Assembly: GCA_948444795.1 (NCBI GenBank)
Contig: CAOJUX010000005.1
Location: 338-32,337, forward strand
DNA: 32,000 bases
Source: an uncultured Erysipelotrichaceae bacterium
Lineage (GTDB): Bacteria; Bacillota_I; Bacilli_A; RF39; UBA660
Direction: 5' to 3'
Shown here: positions 13,138 through 20,155 of the stretch, one piece after another
Layout of the letters: every line of letters begins with the position of its first letter
Position numbering within the stretch: position 1 is the stretch's first letter
The notes under the pieces: generated by a model
Databases searched by the model: none
Told to the model about the DNA's origin: nothing
The model's input: the letters and a program-made list of their open reading frames with translations, nothing else
Program-made: the position numbers and the translations under genes

Positions 13138-14301
13138 TTATTTTTTCCTACTATTTAAGAGTTCTTTATCCACATAAATAACTCTTCCTCCTTTAGGATT
13201 TATTCTTTCATTACCAAATACTATCCATATTATATGCATTTCTAAATCTGGCATATCAGCATCTCCATCCGTAAATATAATTTTATTAAGAACATTGGCC
13301 GAAAAAGCTCTAACTGCCACATTAAAATCAGTACCACCACCACCGCGAAATTCCATATTTCCAATGTCTTCTTCATTATTTATATTATGAAATCCATAAA
13401 ACTTCGTATCAAAGCATCCAACTTTTAGTTTTGAACTTCCTAAAATGTTTTTACATTCAATTAAAAAATTTCTCAAAAGATCTTCGTTAATTGACCCACT
13501 CGTATCTAATACTATTTCGGTTTCTGAAAAAGGTTGTGCCTCTAAGGAGGGGGTTACAACTCCATCTTCTATATAAGCATTTTCAAACGACCAATCATAA
13601 TCATATTTAATATTTTCTTGTAAAATTCTATTCCAATTTAATAACGCTGAAGCAGTGCCAATACTCTTAACAATTCTTTTATCACTATCTACATCCTGTC
13701 CTAGTGATTTACTAGTAAGATTATTTTGAAAATCATTTAACTGTTGCTTATATATTTGTTTATTCAACTTAAAAACTTCTTTTTCACTTATCCCTTTTTC
13801 ATTCATAGTATCATTAGCTGATTTTTCAATTATATTTTTTGTGACTTCTTTCCATAAAGAATGATTATCAACTTCCCCATATTTTTCTTTAAATTCTTTC
13901 TCCCCAATCTTTTGTTTTTCCTCTAAAAGCATATCATAAAGCTCTTCCGCATCATAATTAATGGCTAAAGGTATATCAACAACACCCTTTATTATTGTAA
14001 GCCCATCATTTTTTAAATTAGCATTTATTACTCCATCAGTTGCTATATTCCAAACTTCCACATCTCGATCATTTTTTCTATTTAAATGATTAAAGGCAAC
14101 ATGACTAACCTCATAAGCAACTAAAAAAACTTGTTCGCTAGAAGTAAGGGCTCCTAAAAAATCCGGATTATAAAAAACATGTTTACCATCAGTTGCAGCG
14201 GTTTTATAAGAACAATCAGAAATAAATTCTAAATTAGCAATTATACTTCCAAAGAGAGGATATTTTATCATAACCCTTCTTATAATCAAATCTATTTGCA
14301 C
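13138..14301 (-). CDS. VWA-domain protein with an N-terminal metallopeptidase-like domain (DUF2201-type partner of MoxR-like ATPases)
   Basis: N-terminal PLFGSI...TDGKHVFYNPDF...YEVSHVAFNH is a peptidase-like motif with Tyr in place of the first His. The C-terminus carries VLDTSGSI, a MIDAS DxSxS motif. Confidence 0.8.
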   Translation of the reverse strand: MQIDLIIRRVMIKYPLFGSIIANLEFISDCSYKTAATDGKHVFYNPDFLGALTSSEQVFLVAYEVSHVAFNHLNRKNDRDVEVWNIATDGVINANLKNDGLTIIKGVVDIPLAINYDAEELYDMLLEEKQKIGEKEFKEKYGEVDNHSLWKEVTKNIIEKSANDTMNEKGISEKEVFKLNKQIYKQQLNDFQNNLTSKSLGQDVDSDKRIVKSIGTASALLNWNRILQENIKYDYDWSFENAYIEDGVVTPSLEAQPFSETEIVLDTSGSINEDLLRNFLIECKNILGSSKLKVGCFDTKFYGFHNINNEEDIGNMEFRGGGGTDFNVAVRAFSANVLNKIIFTDGDADMPDLEMHIIWIVFGNERINPKGGRVIYVDKELLNSRKK

Positions 14302-14310
14302 GCCAAACCT

Positions 14311-14712
14311 CTATATATGTACTAATAAAGAATAAACTTCTTCATTAATCTTATTTTTTTCTAAATCTTTACAAGTAACAATTATCAAACAATTATCTGG
14401 TATATCAAAAGTACTAATTTTTTTATATTTTAATATTTCAATAAATTTTTTTTGTTCTAAAAGAGGAATTTCATTAATATTTTCAATTATTAAAATAGCT
14501 TTATCTTTTATACTTTTTGAAATTAATTCTCTATACCATAAAGGAGGCCAAAAATTGGTATCTTCATAATGTCCATTTAATAATTCTCTTGGTATATCTG
14601 CTTTTAAAACAACAGCATTTTTAAAAGAACTAGTTACTATATTATCTACTAACAATGGTGAAATATTTGCTTTAAAATAATTATCAAACATTTTTAATCT
14701 TTTACTATTCAT
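14311..14712 (-). CDS. Hypothetical protein between the ATPase and VWA genes
   Basis: Its ATG overlaps the ATPase stop (TAATG at 14714-10) and it ends 9 nt before the VWA gene, so translational coupling in an operon is likely. Confidence 0.55.
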   Translation of the reverse strand: MNSKRLKMFDNYFKANISPLLVDNIVTSSFKNAVVLKADIPRELLNGHYEDTNFWPPLWYRELISKSIKDKAILIIENINEIPLLEQKKFIEILKYKKISTFDIPDNCLIIVTCKDLEKNKINEEVYSLLVHI

Positions 14713-16286
14713 TATCTTGACTCCCCTCTCTTCATTTCTTCTTCCATTTCTATCTCAACTAAATACTCTAATCTTTCCTTATCACCATGTGCCCACATCG
14801 ATTCAAACGCTGCCCTTGATTCTGATCCAACCAATTTCATAAAATCTCTTACTAATCTAAAGTTTTCAAAATCAACTGAAGATAATCCTGCTGCAGTTAC
14901 AAACTTTTGAGCGGAGTTCATATTTAAATCTGTTTCAGTATAATTATGATTTATAACATCATCAACTGTTATTACTCCATACCTTACAAATTCTTTAAAA
15001 TCTACTGTTAACTCTTCTCCAACAAGAGCTCTAAGCATATCAGGTCTTCTTGTCTTATAAAGTACTTTAGAAGCCATTTCCCATTTTCTAGGATCAGCAT
15101 TAGGTTTATTACCTGTATATTTTGTTCTTAAAACATCAATGCCAGAAAAATACTTATAAGAAATATAAGCATATATTGCAGGATGAATTTTAAACTCAGT
15201 TCCATCATCTTCATAATCTAATCTCTCATAATTCTCTTTTGGTGTTACTGCCCATTTAAGCCAGCTACTTACTGTCGTTTCAATATAAACATGAGCAAAT
15301 CTATTATAAAGTGGTTCAGAAAGTTTATTAGCAGACATAGAATCAGAAAGTTCATTTCCTGCGGCAACAATTCTCGCATTACTAGGTAATTTCCATTTCC
15401 CATCAATCTCTTTATCTAAAACAATATTAAAAGCCTGTCCCTGAACCGAAGGAAGTGCATTTGTAAGCTCATCAAAGAAAATAATATGAATCTTATCAGG
15501 CTCAGCTTCACATCTTTTAAGTACTTTTTGATACCAAGTTGGAGGAATATCAATCATCTCTTTAGTTTCTGAATTATATACACTTTTACCATTTAAACTA
15601 GAAGGAGTAGCATTTGCCATATAAATTATTTCACAATCTGGATCAAGTTCTTTAACTCTTGCTGATTTACCATCACTAGATTTACCATGCAAAAAAACAG
15701 GAATATTACTCTCAATAGCTCCTTTTATAATATCTTCTTCACTTACATTATCAAAATTAAAATCATATACATTTTTACTATTTATAGTACTATTTATAGT
15801 ATTATCTATTGTTATCTCACTTGGAATTATAGCTTTTGCTAGATACTTATCCATAAACTTTTTTATATTAGTATTATCAAAATCGCAGGTATAATCTACT
15901 TCATTAAATTGAACACCTGAAAAAATTATTTTCTTAGCTAAAACTATTTTTTTAACACTATCAACTATCCAAGTTATTGGTTCAACCAAGACAAAATAAG
16001 GTCTTCCCTCTTCTATCCTTTGACCATTTGACAAAGTTTCTCCCGCACTATTAGTATCTGCTACTATTCGAATATATTTATTACCATTATATTCATATTC
16101 TGAAAAAAATCTTTCTTTAAAAGATTCATTTGTATTACTGGTAGAAACTGAATCAGCTGGATACTCTTTACCAGTTTTATTTAAATTGCCAATCACATAT
16201 AAATTTTCTAGAATATTTTCTAGTTCTACAGAAGCAACAGTTTGTGGAAACTCTCCATAATCCTCTTCAAAAACTCCCCCTCTCAC
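14712..16286 (-). CDS. MoxR/AAA_5-like AAA+ ATPase; C-terminal 524 codons of the DGR target frame
   Basis: Walker A is LHGKSSDGKSA, Walker B is IIFFDELTNA, sensor is AAGNE, plus LYNRF. It is in the same frame as ORF 16383..16616 and is separated from it by only one TAG. Confidence 0.8.
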   Translation of the reverse strand: MRGGVFEEDYGEFPQTVASVELENILENLYVIGNLNKTGKEYPADSVSTSNTNESFKERFFSEYEYNGNKYIRIVADTNSAGETLSNGQRIEEGRPYFVLVEPITWIVDSVKKIVLAKKIIFSGVQFNEVDYTCDFDNTNIKKFMDKYLAKAIIPSEITIDNTINSTINSKNVYDFNFDNVSEEDIIKGAIESNIPVFLHGKSSDGKSARVKELDPDCEIIYMANATPSSLNGKSVYNSETKEMIDIPPTWYQKVLKRCEAEPDKIHIIFFDELTNALPSVQGQAFNIVLDKEIDGKWKLPSNARIVAAGNELSDSMSANKLSEPLYNRFAHVYIETTVSSWLKWAVTPKENYERLDYEDDGTEFKIHPAIYAYISYKYFSGIDVLRTKYTGNKPNADPRKWEMASKVLYKTRRPDMLRALVGEELTVDFKEFVRYGVITVDDVINHNYTETDLNMNSAQKFVTAAGLSSVDFENFRLVRDFMKLVGSESRAAFESMWAHGDKERLEYLVEIEMEEEMKRGESR

Positions 16287-16327
16287 TCCGTTCGAGGAGA
16301 TACTTTGGATTAAAGAGTACGGTAAAG

Positions 16328-16405
16328 CTGGGCGGGAACCAACATCACAATTAGTAACATCGCCCCAGTCATCATTACCACTCTAACTAACAGCGCGGGC
16401 ACAAT
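16328..16405 (-). repeat. DGR variable repeat (VR)
   Basis: It is 69/78 identical to 17896-17973. The nine differences are at 16349, 16350, 16361, 16363, 16364, 16370, 16373, 16381 and 16387. Eight of them are opposite TR adenines in the minus sense. Confidence 0.9.
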
Positions 16406-16616
16406 TTGAATTATAAGGTGTTTTTGTCCACCAATAACCAGTTCTATTTTTTAATTCATTATCATTATTTACATGAAAACTATCAGATACATAACCACCT
16501 AACAAAATTAAAAAATCAGTTATAGCAGCTTTTGTTCCATATATATTCATTATTTCTGATTTATTATCACCAAAAATTTGGTTAACATCTAAAAAAGTAA
16601 AGTTCATATCCATCAC
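16383..16616 (-). CDS. N-terminal part of the DGR target: ligand-binding-like variable domain, terminated by an in-frame TAG inside the VR
   Basis: FTFLDVNQIF...TKAAITDFLILLGGYV...GYWWTKTPYNSNCARAVS*, continued after the TAG by SGNDDWGDVTNCDVGSRPAL. This resembles the FLLS..E / YWLRSP / GVRPAL lectin-like domains known as DGR targets. The best RBS (AGGTGA) favours the ATG at 16607. Confidence 0.7.
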   Translation of the reverse strand: MMDMNFTFLDVNQIFGDNKSEIMNIYGTKAAITDFLILLGGYVSDSFHVNNDNELKNRTGYWWTKTPYNSNCARAVS

Positions 16617-16650: not shown

Positions 16651-17664
16651 TCAATCATCTTTCAAAGAAATTGTAAAGTTTTTAAAATTTTTCTTTTCAT
16701 TAGTATTTTTAACATGATTATAAAATGAATTTAATCTTTGCTTTACATAATCTTCATCTACTATACCTTTGATGTACAACTTATTTACGGTTTTTAAATG
16801 TTTTTTTATTCTTTGTTTTGACGAAGAACGGAGTTTAACAACTATTTTTCCTTTAGGTGTTAATATATGCCTAAAACCTAAAAAATCTACACCATTACTT
16901 AGCCTTCCAATTTGAGTTTTCTTATTTAATTCAAGTTTTAATAATTTTAAACACATTTCTTCGATTACATTCTTACAATAAACTAGATACTTTTTATCTC
17001 TAGATATCAAAATAAAATCATCCATATATCTCACATAATATTTAATATTCAATTTTTCTTTAATAAAATGATCAACTTTATTTAAATAAAATAAAGCAAA
17101 CCATTGGTTAGATTGACTTCCTAAAGGAAGACCTTCATTTTTATTATTTATTAATATTTTTATTAACCATTTTTCATCTTCCGTAAAATCTATATCATTT
17201 AAAAGTTTTAATAAAATATCATGATCTATACTTGCAAAATATTTTCTTATGTCGCATTTTAAAAAATATATATAATTATTATTATATTTAAAGAATTCTT
17301 TTTTCATAAATTTATGTAATCTTTCAATAGCAAAATGCGTTCCTTTTTCTATCCGACAAGCACAATTATCAAATATTAATTTTTTTTCTATTTTTGGTTT
17401 TAAAACAATATCACAAAAGCATCTAATTACTACTCTATCTTTAAAAGGATAAGCTTCTATTAACCTTTGTTTAGGTTCATATATAAAAAATTTTTTATAA
17501 TTTCCTAGTTTATATTTTTTAGTAACAAGTGCCTTATTTAAAGAGTATAAATTAACTGCCAAATTAACCTCAAATCTAATAACTTCTCCTTTATGTTGTT
17601 TTGAATTTCGACATTTTTTATATGCTAAATAAAGATGATCAAAACTAAAAATTTCTTCTAACAT
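16651..17664 (-). CDS. DGR-type reverse transcriptase
   Basis: CDIRKYFASIDHDIL (RT motif 3/A), GLPLGSQSNQWFALFYL (DGR-like [I/L]GxxxSQ-type motif 4) and YVRYMDDFILIS (YxDD). It is 337 aa with no maturase or endonuclease domain and lies adjacent to the TR. Confidence 0.92.
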   Translation of the reverse strand: MLEEIFSFDHLYLAYKKCRNSKQHKGEVIRFEVNLAVNLYSLNKALVTKKYKLGNYKKFFIYEPKQRLIEAYPFKDRVVIRCFCDIVLKPKIEKKLIFDNCACRIEKGTHFAIERLHKFMKKEFFKYNNNYIYFLKCDIRKYFASIDHDILLKLLNDIDFTEDEKWLIKILINNKNEGLPLGSQSNQWFALFYLNKVDHFIKEKLNIKYYVRYMDDFILISRDKKYLVYCKNVIEEMCLKLLKLELNKKTQIGRLSNGVDFLGFRHILTPKGKIVVKLRSSSKQRIKKHLKTVNKLYIKGIVDEDYVKQRLNSFYNHVKNTNEKKNFKNFTISLKDD

Positions 17665-17895
17665 TATAATTTACCTCCAAATAAAATAAACACCCCTTTA
17701 AACATCCAAAAAGTTTTAATAAACTTGTTGTTTGTGTGAGTGTTTTTATATATTCTTCTATCGCATTTTAAATATTTATTTTAGCGATTAGAAAAGAAGA
17801 AAATTCCTTCACCTTACAATACTGATATATTTATCTTAAAATATATTTCTCTGATTTGTTTTCTGAATTTTTATATAATTCCTTCAAAAGTGAAT
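17665..17895 (-). ncRNA. TR-to-RT spacer, expected to be part of the DGR template RNA
   Basis: A 231-nt non-coding gap lies between the TR 3' end and the RT start. In characterised DGRs the spacer RNA is needed for priming. The role here is inferred. Confidence 0.4.
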
Positions 17896-17973
17896 CTGGG
17901 CGGGAACCAACATCACGTTTAGTAACATTGTTCCAGTTATTATTACCATTCTAATTAACAGCGCGGGCACAAT
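17896..17973 (-). repeat. DGR template repeat (TR)
   Basis: Minus sense reads attgtgcccgcgctgttaattagaatggtaataataactggaacaatgttactaaacgtgatgttggttcccgcccag. It has 22 adenines and six in-frame AAY codons, and lies between the Avd-like ORF and the RT. Confidence 0.9.
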
Positions 17974-18026: not shown

Positions 18027-18611
18027 CTAATTGTTTTTGTTAAATCTTTTATCATCACTTTTTTTCCAAGAGGTAATTAAACTAATAGCTTCGGCAAGTT
18101 GTATTGATATTTGTTTATATTGTTTTTTTAAAATACAACCAGAACTTTCTGCTATCATTGCTACATAACCTAATAATTTTAATTTAACTATAGCTTCTTT
18201 TTGAAAATCTTCTCTTTTTACTTTATTACTATTAGAATCTAATCTTATAAAATTTGCATTTAAAAGACATTCTAATGTATCTAAACAATAATTTTGCATT
18301 CTATTTACAAATACTCCTCTAAATCTTTTAGGAGAATTTTCTGTTACCGCAATTACATAAGCGCATAATTTTTTTACAATTGTAATAACTATCAAGTCAT
18401 TAGAATTTTGCGGTATTTTATTAATGATTTTTTGCTCTTTTTCTTCTTCTAAAATTATCTTTTTTACAATATCTTCATTAAATTTATTATTATTAGCTAT
18501 CGCAAATTCTTTCTTTATTGCTAGTACATCCTCTGTATTGTTTACTGAATCAAGATCAAGATTAATTTCTTTTGGTATTTTTAAATTGTTTGTTCTATTA
18601 ACCTGTAACAC
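18027..18611 (-). CDS. Avd-like accessory protein (four-helix-bundle type) with an N-terminal extension; start uncertain
   Basis: It occupies the position immediately 5' of the TR. The C-terminal ~120 aa are helical and end in ...QLAEAISLITSWKKS, reminiscent of Avd / 23S-IVS four-helix-bundle proteins. GTG start without a good RBS. Confidence 0.5.
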   Translation of the reverse strand: MLQVNRTNNLKIPKEINLDLDSVNNTEDVLAIKKEFAIANNNKFNEDIVKKIILEEEKEQKIINKIPQNSNDLIVITIVKKLCAYVIAVTENSPKRFRGVFVNRMQNYCLDTLECLLNANFIRLDSNSNKVKREDFQKEAIVKLKLLGYVAMIAESSGCILKKQYKQISIQLAEAISLITSWKKSDDKRFNKNN

Positions 18612-18747
18612 TTATTAATTTTTCATAAATAAAATATATATTTATGATTACCTCCTAAGATATTATAACATTATTTTTTGATTTTTAAATATATATTAAT
18701 ATATTTTATTTATTATAGTCATAAAATTGAATATAAGTAGGTGAAAA

Positions 18748-19224
18748 ATGAATAATGAATATGCTCTTAATTTTATAATTCCTACAGGGCCATCAGGAGA
18801 TAATGGTGTAATAGAACCTAGTATTAGTTTGGTTTATAATGACATGACAACAAGTGGAACAGTTTCAATTAATAGAAGTACAATATATCCTAAAGATTCA
18901 ACTGTCTTTACAGTTCAAAATAATCAGTTATTATTTAATAGTCGTGGTAAATTTGAATATAATATATCTGGTATAATAAAAAAACAAAACTCAGATTCAA
19001 CTACGAACTTAGTCTTAAGAACAAGAAATAATTCTGGTATTACTAATAATTTATTCGTATTTAATGTTAATCAAGGGGAAGATGAAATTTATTTTTTCCA
19101 AACAAAAATTGGCGAATACTCTGGATCTCAATCTGTTAATTTAATATTTAATAAAAATGCTGATTCAAGTTCGAAATTAGAAAATGTTGAACTAACTATA
19201 AAAAAATTATATGATTGGGAATAA
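18748..19224 (+). CDS. Paralog 1 of a small beta-rich protein family (BclA-C-terminal / C1q-TNF-like suspected)
   Basis: N-terminal EYALNFIIPTGPSGDNG, an internal G.FEY.ISG, YFFQTK, and C-terminal LTIKKL. These are shared with the next three ORFs. Confidence 0.6.
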   Translation: MNNEYALNFIIPTGPSGDNGVIEPSISLVYNDMTTSGTVSINRSTIYPKDSTVFTVQNNQLLFNSRGKFEYNISGIIKKQNSDSTTNLVLRTRNNSGITNNLFVFNVNQGEDEIYFFQTKIGEYSGSQSVNLIFNKNADSSSKLENVELTIKKLYDWE

Positions 19225-19227
19225 AAA

Positions 19228-19689
19228 ATGGAAGAAAATATAGAATATGTAATAGATTTTATTTTACCTAAAGGAAAACCAGGATATGGTTCCTTTGAAG
19301 CATTAACATATATAACATTTCAAAATCAGATAAATAATGGTTCTTTAACTAGTTTAAAAGCATTAAAAATACCACGAAATACTAATATATTTAACGTTAC
19401 TAATAATATTATAATAGAACATACTGGCTGTTATATATTTACAATAAGCGGATTATTAAAAGAATCTGGAAATACTAACCCATTATTTAATATACAACTA
19501 GAAAATAATGGTATATCAGAAAATCTCATAACAGTAAATTTAAATCTAGAACAAAAATTATATTTTTCACAAACTAAAGTTAAGAATTGCCAAAAAAATA
19601 CTATAATAAAACTAACTTTACAAAAAGCAAATAATTCTGATGCATCTTTAGAAGGAGCAAATTTAATAATTAAAAAATTACCCTTATAG
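19228..19689 (+). CDS. Paralog 2 of the same family
   Basis: EYVIDFILPKGKPGYG, GCYIFTISG, YFSQTK, LIIKKL. It starts 3 nt after paralog 1. Confidence 0.6.
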   Translation: MEENIEYVIDFILPKGKPGYGSFEALTYITFQNQINNGSLTSLKALKIPRNTNIFNVTNNIIIEHTGCYIFTISGLLKESGNTNPLFNIQLENNGISENLITVNLNLEQKLYFSQTKVKNCQKNTIIKLTLQKANNSDASLEGANLIIKKLPL

Positions 19690-19702
19690 AAAAGAGGAAA
19701 AA

Positions 19703-20155
19703 ATGGAATATTCACTCAATTTTGTTATTCCAGAAGGATTAAGAGGAGAATCAGCTATTGAAGGAATAGCATATCTTGAATACCTTTCAAAACAGTCCCA
19801 AGGTGAAGTTGATATAAACTCTTCTAATTCATTTACCAATAATACAACTATTTTTTTTATCTATACAAATAAAATTTTATTAAAAAAAGAAGGATTATAT
19901 GAATTTATATTTAGTGGTAAAATATTTACATCAATTAATTCAGATTATTCTTTAAAACTAATAAGTGAGAATAATGGTAATGTTCAAGAAATTATAGATT
20001 TATCATTAGAACAAAGTATTAATGAAATTTACTTTTCAAAAATAAAAATCTTAAATTTATCATCAGATAATAATATTTCAATAATTTTTGATCCTAAAAA
20101 CAATAAAATTATTAATTTAGAAAATACAACTTTATTAATTAAGAAATTCAAATAA
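19703..20155 (+). CDS. Paralog 3 of the same family
   Basis: EYSLNFVIPEGLRGES, GLYEFIFSG, YFSKIK, LLIKKF. Confidence 0.6.
   Translation: MEYSLNFVIPEGLRGESAIEGIAYLEYLSKQSQGEVDINSSNSFTNNTTIFFIYTNKILLKKEGLYEFIFSGKIFTSINSDYSLKLISENNGNVQEIIDLSLEQSINEIYFSKIKILNLSSDNNISIIFDPKNNKIINLENTTLLIKKFK

Follow-up and report, generated by a model that had tools for sequence, protein, structure and literature searches.

A retroelement template with an encoded stop codon and the cytoplasmic sensor-ATPase that it probably diversifies and switches

Can a gene broken by a stop codon be in a normal state, when the template from which it is rewritten carries the same stop? The question is raised by a diversity-generating retroelement (DGR) in a stretch of 32,000 nucleotides from an uncultured Erysipelotrichaceae bacterium (contig CAOJUX010000005.1, positions 338 to 32,337; this whole stretch is called the window). 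The target gene of the element is interrupted by an in-frame TAG, and the template repeat (TR), which is copied by mutagenic retrohoming into the variable repeat (VR) of the target, carries TAG at the same codon. Since the TR encodes a nonsense codon, each retrohoming event rewrites the binding loop and at the same time keeps or removes the stop. It is probable, in our judgement, that the DGR both diversifies and toggles a cytoplasmic sensor-ATPase, which belongs to a three-gene module with a probable role in conflict. Cassette and target module lie on the minus strand in the order avd, TR, reverse transcriptase (RT), target, 133-amino-acid open reading frame (ORF) and DUF2201 gene:

18027..18611, minus strand: Avd-like accessory protein, 194 amino acids (PHROG 'Avd protein of DGR', 3e-15)
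17893..17973, minus strand: TR, 81 nt, with an in-frame TAG at 17953..17951 when read in the VR frame
16651..17664, minus strand: DGR reverse transcriptase, 337 amino acids (RVT_1, 1.4e-14), catalytic YMDD intact
14712..16607, minus strand: target gene, with an N-terminal variable module, an AAA+ ATPase and a helical C-terminal region
16325..16405, minus strand: VR, about codons 68-95 of the target frame, with the G+C-rich 3' end GGTTCCCGCCCAG in common with the TR
16383..16385, minus strand: in-frame TAG (OFF state), templated by the TR
14311..14712, minus strand: 133-amino-acid protein (p133), a predicted degenerate AAA+ core paralogue without Walker A and with DE changed to EN
13138..14301, minus strand: DUF2201 protein, 387 amino acids, with a zincin-like DUF2201_N domain and a VWA-like domain (metal ion-dependent adhesion site, MIDAS, LDTSGS; phrog_1314, 2.5e-64)

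A stop codon written in the template

The TR and VR of the window are collinear and differ at 10 positions, nine of them TR adenines (seven changed to G, one to T and one to C), the tenth being a C-to-T change that converts a nearly invariant VR arginine into cysteine. In 12 related TR/VR pairs the TR adenines were substituted in 135 of 292 cases and the other bases in 11 of 575, with a pooled rate of 46% per adenine and about half of the changes leading to G. This adenine-specific pattern, present in the window and repeated in the relatives, argues that the DGR is real. A chromosomal DGR cassette composed of avd, TR and RT feeds a co-oriented module of three genes. The window RT is 58-71% identical to RTs that adjoin adenine-mutated TR/VR pairs, and clusters with them. 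The SQ dipeptide is typical of DGR RTs (Schillinger 2012, PMC3521204); the corresponding motif reads SSQ in 11 of 11 aligned relatives and SNQ in the window (LPLGSQSNQWF, about 17105-17125, minus strand), the Q being retained. The Avd-like protein reached 28 bits with Pfam bAvd and 27.8 bits with NCBIfam DivGenRetAVD, both under the curated cut-offs, and the position of its gene 5' of the TR is kept in related loci. No G+C-rich hairpin was found 3' of the VR, the only one being an AT-rich hairpin of 6 bp about 100 nt away.

In the relatives hypervariability is confined to the VR. Among alleles at least 90% identical from DGR-bearing lineages, 26% of the variation falls inside 29 VR residues that make up 4.5% of the length, and different VRs produced from one TR are seen within one related species. 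The same N-terminal module, in loci without a DGR, has a fixed sequence, as exemplified by P0096, identical on 23 contigs.

Read in the VR frame, the codons of the window TR are AAT TAG AAT GGT AAT AAT AAC TGG AAC AAT GTT ACT AAA CGT GAT. A preliminary description of this DNA had treated the TAG of the target as a defect to be repaired; however, the TAG is copied from that of the TR, so it is not a random lesion, and TR stops recur across the DGR family. A TAA or TAG occupies the window's codon in the TRs of the related loci L004, L006, L008, L013, L020, L021, L029, L042, L159 and L167. A TAA or TGA is placed five codons downstream, at a conserved Trp codon, in L005, L009, L004, L008 and L167, so that L004, L008 and L167 have double stops, and a TAA is found at other codons in L017 and L049. 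An in-frame stop (TAA, TAG or TGA) is thus carried by 15 of the 23 distinct TRs of the target family, against 0 of 49 in the neighbouring DGR clades (Fisher p = 4e-10, calculated without phylogenetic correction). The control group was composed of TR/VR pairs obtained by scanning metagenomes with an RT profile, a scan with the window RT as single query having found nothing; their RTs are 35-47% identical to that of the window, their targets combine DUF6273 with Ig-like domains (tentaclin-like), and stops are absent from all 49 VRs as well as from the TRs. TRs would therefore normally be purged of stops. The stop at the window's codon is found throughout the upper clade of the RT tree; four lineages lack it there, and two of them (L005 and L009) carry the stop at the Trp codon instead. 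It has been stated as a rule elsewhere that TR adenines are placed so as to avoid stops (PMC10907252; 10.1101/2024.11.15.621889; PMC4159848); this typical, although not defining, DGR feature is missing here, the TAG being in frame. Loci with premature stops were discarded in a DGR survey (Wu 2018, PMC5758913), and neither stops nor ATPase targets are mentioned by Roux 2021 (PMC8144416).

The window gene is OFF, its VR having retained the TAG of the TR. Stops are also present in the VRs of L005 (TAA), L008 (TGA), L017 (TGA), L021 (TAG), L159 (TAG, from a TAA in the TR), L160 (TAA) and L167 (TAG and TGA), while a sense codon is found in L004 and L009 (TTA), L020 and L029 (TGG), L042 (TAT), L006 (AGA) and L013 (CCG). 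About 40% of the sampled VRs are stopped (4 of 10 loci sampled without bias; with the window, 5 of 11). From the pooled substitution rates, a TR stop codon would survive homing with a probability of about 0.53 under neutrality. In the 78 loci that were fetched, one genome per species, 5 of 92 N-terminal modules are interrupted, all five being DGR-linked (p = 1e-4), and in every OFF locus the downstream ATPase ORF, p133 and the RT are intact. A search with the 74-amino-acid N-terminal fragment of the window yielded short ORFs from other assemblies, four of which (P0122, P0123, P0124 and P0126) end at exactly the window's stop codon. In L006 and L013 the VR codon departs from the TAA of the TR at the T also. 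Such changes are atypical for a DGR, and affect 2 of the 14 Ts of stop codons as compared with 9 among 561 non-adenine bases elsewhere (p = 0.03); either the TR stop is younger than the last homing, or rare non-adenine changes that remove the stop were favoured.

ON and OFF alleles of one gene coexist in one related species, in which the loci L165, L166, L004, L168 and L169 have the same TR (with TAA and TGA) and the same flanks, L165 and L168 being 98.5% identical in nucleotide sequence:

L165: TAG at the stop position, OFF; Avd and RT intact
L166: TAA, in a VR different from that of L165, OFF; Avd and RT intact
L004: TTA, ON; RT intact
L168/L169: TAC, and TGT in place of the Trp codon, ON; a frameshift in the RT and an internal deletion in Avd

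Since these loci share one TR, both states arise from independent homings off a single template. At the protein level, P0076 (659 amino acids, cluster of 26) and P0277 (536 amino acids, cluster of 4) are 99% identical and occupy the same chromosomal spot, between an FtsW-family gene and PTS-EIIB/HisKA genes. The P0076 allele of L168/L169 (1157-2995) is ON, and beside it the RT carries a frameshift near residue 125 and residues 122-164 are missing from Avd. A useful variant may have been locked in, or an assembly error may be common to two runs; as a case of an ON variant frozen through the loss of its DGR, the observation is a single anecdote. Other strains of the window's own species were not found by a look-up of the exact 524-amino-acid ORF or by the homologue search.

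Some loci depart further from the complete arrangement. The whole VR is deleted in frame in L011 (4894-5130; …DNDAR|SSNGVRG…), where Avd and RT are present, and one-base indels lie inside the VRs of L029 (7240-7260) and L080 (4340-4360). In L034, L036, L039 and L072, RT fragments of 100-300 nt are found directly 5' of the target, without Avd or TR, which suggests that the DGR has been lost repeatedly from an ancestrally DGR-linked module.

The sensor-ATPase and its partners

The target frame extends from 16616 or 16607 to 14712, and the TAG breaks it into ORFs of 74 and 524 amino acids. The likely start is the ATG at 16607, which is preceded by AGGTGA and fits the MNNFTFL start of the homologues; it lies 43 nt from the RT stop and is better placed than the GTG at 16616, to which the distance is 34 nt. 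The repaired frame, used as query, retrieved over 3,000 proteins of about 645 amino acids that are uninterrupted, the best non-self matches (640-690 amino acids) being 57-64% identical over 98-100% of the length. The continuity of these homologues indicates that the variable N-terminus and the AAA+ ATPase form one protein, laid out as a variable domain of about 100 amino acids, a second beta-rich subdomain and an AAA_5/MoxR-like ATPase. Walker A (HGKSSDGKS), Walker B (IIFFDELT) and the sensor AAGN are invariant columns in alignments of 23 and 52 sequences, and the column at the window's TAG is hypervariable. The Pfam match to AAA_5 is borderline (22.5 bits, the cut-off being 22) and extends over only half of the domain. 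A tentative assignment to the MoxR clade is based on the annotation of a phage homologue as 'MoxR-like' and on BFVD matches to dynein-related AAA proteins, obtained with a poor model of this region.

The target would be cytoplasmic, the maximal Kyte-Doolittle mean over 19 residues being 1.37, against 2.91 in a neighbouring membrane protein, and hydrophobic segments are absent from all three proteins of the module. The stop of the target overlaps the ATG of p133 as TAATG, and a gap of 9 nt separates p133 from the GTG of the DUF2201 gene. Hence the architecture put forward in the preliminary description, in which a VR near the N-terminus of a frame without signal peptide or transmembrane segment continues into an ATPase with these motifs, 34 nt (as measured to the GTG) downstream of the RT and ahead of a 133-amino-acid ORF and a VWA protein with a MIDAS DTSGS and a peptidase-like DUF2201 region, is borne out by the sequence.

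The same description expected a C-type-lectin-like N-terminus, and here the evidence is divided. In favour are profile matches, all of them partial or weak. The window matches DUF6273 with E 0.006 (16.9 bits, under the cut-off of 23.5) over residues 51-97 only, and its best homologue with 3.8e-6; two homologues also match Fib_succ_major. When the variable domain was aligned by hhalign with the DUF6273 domain of tentaclins, the targets of the sister DGR clades, the probability was 90% (E 1.4e-6), the alignment covering the VR half only. According to published models DUF6273 adopts a C-type lectin fold in which a hairpin carries the VR (PMC10743442). An arrangement of the N-terminal module as a circular permutation of DUF6273 was considered and rejected, the second hhalign segment having a probability of 0.3%. 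Structural comparison gave no such match. An AlphaFold2 model of the homologue P0009 has a pLDDT of about 90 over the N-terminal module (residues 1-265) and is poor over the ATPase; Foldseek with the whole model retrieved from the PDB only MCM chains with a TM-score of about 0.1, and from BFVD only phage AAA ATPases, without any match to the N-terminal module. A model of the N-terminal 268 amino acids made without an alignment had a pLDDT of 40, and when profiles of the whole family, the N-terminal module and the DUF2201 protein were compared with PDB sequences, nothing significant was found. A C-type lectin fold of the variable domain is considered likely from the profile matches. The sensor has been expanded in two manners, of which L049 (7004-15000), L040/L043 and the proteins P0002, P0003 and P0012 are examples. 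In some proteins of about 910 amino acids the N-terminal module is present twice, and at some loci up to four tandem sensor-ATPase genes precede a single p133/DUF2201 pair, the four copies of L049 having identical VR windows.

Alignment of p133 with the target ATPase by hhalign (probability 93%, E 3.3e-7) points to an inactive paralogue of the AAA+ core: Walker A is missing, the DE of Walker B is replaced by EN, the sensor N is replaced by C, and no Pfam family is matched. In the DUF2201 protein, Pfam recognizes DUF2201_N (2e-26) and the VWA-like DUF2201 domain (2.6e-13), and the MIDAS motifs LDTSGS, GGT and FTDG are conserved among orthologues. The zincin motif HExxH...H is present in 41 of 42 orthologues (AHE[VI]CH..F.H); in the window's genome only, the first zinc-ligand His is replaced by Tyr (AYEVSHVAFNH, 14100-14135, minus strand).

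Relatives of the target are encoded in 222 species-representative stretches, mostly from uncultured gut Bacilli such as Coprobacillus sp. CAG:605 and Clostridium sp. CAG:417, and an exhaustive search with clustering at 50% gave 5,316 clusters, some of the ATPase homologues having other, longer or absent N-termini. The genes for p133 and the DUF2201 protein follow the target in 50 of the 54 loci with enough downstream sequence. An RT match lies 5' of it in 25 of the 55 loci with at least 3 kb upstream (16 near full length, several remnants), so that a DGR would stand directly upstream in about a third to a half of the loci, in agreement with the expectation that these genes would be conserved neighbours, and 12 of the 78 loci have at least two tandem sensor-ATPase copies. 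The ATPase and the DUF2201 protein also match adjacent phage genes (phrog_1297, 4e-39, and phrog_1314, respectively), relatives of the latter occurring in 597 phage records. One N4-like Vibrio phage has the DUF2201 gene beside a 'MoxR-like ATPase', 5' of helicase and DNA polymerase genes. In Vibrio phage SBP1 (L164; MK301608.1 13331-16073) an HNH endonuclease gene stands between the MoxR-like ATPase and the DUF2201 'metallopeptidase', and the intervention of this gene in N4-like phages would explain why in many records the label HNH endonuclease is wrongly given to the DUF2201 protein (phrog_1314).

The surroundings of the operon are those of a chromosome. The flanks in the window are ordinary genes (GDPD phosphodiesterase, methyladenine glycosylase, SDR), and housekeeping genes flank the module in the relatives as well; the setting is neither phage nor prophage, and a comparison of the window with 50,697 phage records gave no nucleotide match. 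One promoter-like site precedes avd:

18662..18689, minus strand: TTTAAA, 16 nt, TG-TATAAT; a consensus match only

The site is a possible candidate for the operon promoter. The AT-rich DNA of the window shows no excess of promoter-like sites over shuffled sequences, and the scan is uninformative because the G+C content is only about 25%. A search for terminator-like sites on the minus strand from 18800 to 12700 found none. Directly 5' of the cassette and on the opposite strand (18748-20155, plus strand) are three tandem paralogous ORFs of 150-158 amino acids, each of which opens with a short Gly-X-Y-like stretch (e.g. IPTGPSGDNG); they have no Pfam or PHROG matches.

These features can be combined into a working model in which the DGR would act as specificity randomiser and on/off switch of a cytoplasmic sensor. 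With the gene ON, the variable domain would bind a ligand, and binding might drive the ATPase, perhaps in a mixed ring with p133. The ATPase would then engage the MIDAS/VWA protein, as MoxR ATPases do their VWA partners, and this engagement could release or activate the peptidase, the zincin domain being the output. The module would probably act against phages or other invaders and mobile elements. Such a role in conflict is plausible; the hypervariation and the tandem sensor paralogues point to it, as do the analogous DGR-linked NTPase/vWA systems (PMC7159879, PMC10907252).

A selected switch, a tolerated defect or another function

It could be, though we propose it tentatively, that the TR nonsense codons are a selected design feature, which would make the DGR a stochastic on/off switch as well as the specificity randomiser of an immune module. 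Most cells would then be OFF, being spared the cost of the system or its self-reactive variants, while a minority would display new specificities, and losing the RT could make useful ON variants permanent, as in L168/L169. Several observations weigh against the proposed switch and immune sensor, and a number of them would fit a possible but rather doubtful explanation, namely that the TR stops are neutral or slightly deleterious accidents (AAA to TAA, TGG to TGA) and the window gene a dead allele in a decaying locus, the stops persisting since adenine mutagenesis removes them in about half of the homings. The OFF frequency is near the neutral expectation, so that OFF alleles may be tolerated rather than selected; L079 and L161, which belong to the close clade, have no TR stop; and the counts of stops are phylogenetically non-independent. 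The non-adenine change at the stop T in L006 and L013 suggests that the TR stop may post-date the last homing, decay is evident elsewhere (the deleted VR of L011, the frameshifted VRs of L029 and L080, the RT remnants at several loci), and in the window itself the YExxH of the zincin motif, the SNQ of the RT and the Arg-to-Cys change of the VR are all compatible with it. Accidental stops would not, however, be expected to be missing from all 49 sister-clade TRs, to occupy the same codon across RTs that are about 60% identical, to occur as double stops in L004, L008 and L167, or to appear at the Trp codon in lineages without the stop at the window's codon; nor would decay leave ATPase ORF, p133 and RT intact in every OFF locus. 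In the window, intact reading frames remain for the RT, Avd, ATPase, p133 and the VWA protein, and in a count of singleton changes in otherwise invariant columns the window was no outlier. It is about equally likely that the window copy is a switchable OFF allele or that it is in early decay. Two explanations that would do away with the OFF state were rejected. That the TAG is translated, through reassignment, pyrrolysine or programmed readthrough, leaving the gene ON, is very improbable: nothing speaks for it directly, TAG being only the rarest of the three stop-capable codons here, whereas TAG ends 5 of 31 long ORFs of the window, relatives have TAA and TGA at the same positions, and the gene is split by the gene callers in three sources. 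An artefact of sequencing or assembly is hardly credible at all; VRs vary in populations, assemblers can yield a chimaeric consensus in a hypervariable region and VR frameshifts are seen in L080 and L029, but the same TAG is in the invariant TR and a like pattern was seen in over 15 assemblies, made independently in different projects.

The conflict role meets a different objection. The module could be a domesticated phage ATPase/VWA-peptidase that serves, for instance, as chaperone-protease for a variable substrate or in DNA replication, and not an immune sensor. The closest relatives of the ATPase and the peptidase, with the phrog_1297 and phrog_1314 matches and the 597 phage records already cited, belong to the replication module in N4-like phages; searches of PADLOC and NCBIfam gave no defence model for the ATPase, for p133 or for the DUF2201 protein; and the flanks are housekeeping genes, with no defence island. 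To these points must be added, as regards the proposed sensor, that fold searches of the PDB and BFVD gave no C-type lectin support for the N-terminal module and that the ATPase region is poorly predicted by AlphaFold. We nevertheless consider a function outside immunity unlikely, because DGR hypervariation and tandem paralogues (12 of 78 loci) are signatures of recognition arms races, and because the published DGR-linked NTPase/vWA systems have been read as conflict systems (PMC7159879, PMC10907252), although that reading is itself inferred. A diversified and toggled cytoplasmic sensor-ATPase is retained as the probable interpretation.

Significance and relation to known systems

With a stop encoded in the template, 'broken' targets could be a normal and reversible state. 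As surveys filter out premature stops, a class of DGRs and their targets may be missing from the catalogues. The family runs counter to the stop-avoidance design rule for TRs and, if the interpretation is true, would represent retroelement-driven phase variation and a counter-example to that rule. Should the switch be adaptive, it would be a compact natural form of bet-hedging over expression and specificity, and a possible use would be engineered DGR mutagenesis with a built-in selection for mutated variants. The module of sensor-ATPase, inactive paralogue and VWA-zincin protein, found in 222 species-representative genomes and more than 5,000 protein clusters at 50% identity, also ties a conserved gene pair of N4-like phages to a diversifying cellular system.

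Parts of this picture have precedents. A VR at the N-terminus, which the preliminary description regarded as unusual, is indeed rare, but three were described in Wu 2018 (PMC5758913), and the tentaclins of gut phages carry an N-terminal DUF6273 C-type lectin domain (PMC10743442). The link between DGRs and MoxR/vWA conflict systems, to which that description referred, is likewise published (Kaur et al. 2020, PMC7159879; Dore et al. 2024, PMC10907252). Its suggestion that the module is uncharacterised stands to the extent that no PADLOC or NCBIfam model and, in a partial literature search, no paper was found for it. What appears to be new is that the variable domain is fused to the ATPase itself, that the module has this composition and is homologous to the gene pair of N4-like phages, that it is abundant in gut Bacilli and, above all, that the TRs recurrently encode nonsense codons, for which the same partial search gave no earlier description.

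The vWA-MoxR systems with VMAP or iSTAND components are alike in that a DGR-varied domain, in the window's family a probable C-type lectin, is the proposed sensor and is wired to an AAA+ ATPase of MoxR-like type and to a vWA/MIDAS protein and a peptidase, all predicted to be cytoplasmic. They differ in arrangement. An FGS/C-type lectin domain at the C-terminus of the vWA component has been called a 'strict architectural syntax' of those systems (PMC7159879), whereas here the variable domain is N-terminal on the ATPase; the third component, there VMAP or iSTAND, neither of which is found in the window, is here a putative degenerate AAA+ core; and the peptidase, there a trypsin or caspase, is here a zincin-like DUF2201_N domain fused to the VWA. 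The hosts there are multicellular bacteria (cyanobacteria and gammaproteobacteria are named) and here small-genome gut Bacilli, whose TRs, moreover, carry stop codons. The tentaclin DGRs, as sister clades of the window element, agree with it in the order avd, TR, RT and target, in a VR near the 5' end of the target, in RTs that are 35-47% identical and in the alignment of the window's VR segment to the VR half of their DUF6273 domains. Tentaclins, however, continue into Ig-like domains and are phage surface proteins, while in the window the domain is shortened to about 100 amino acids and is followed by the beta-rich subdomain and the ATPase in a chromosomal operon; in-frame stops occur in 0 of 49 tentaclin-type TRs. 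In N4-like phages (Schitoviridae) and other phages both the ATPase and the DUF2201 protein have counterparts in adjacent genes, but those ATPases, of about 350-400 amino acids, lack the variable N-terminal module, are not accompanied by p133 or a DGR, and belong to replication modules. Finally, phase-variable loci that operate by slipped-strand mispairing or DNA inversion resemble the present family in that heritable ON and OFF alleles of one gene coexist within a species, as in the relative with the loci L165 to L169 and L004, through a dedicated local mutational mechanism. In the DGR family described here, by contrast, the switch would be a templated nonsense codon rewritten by mutagenic retrohoming, so that each switching event would also alter specificity.

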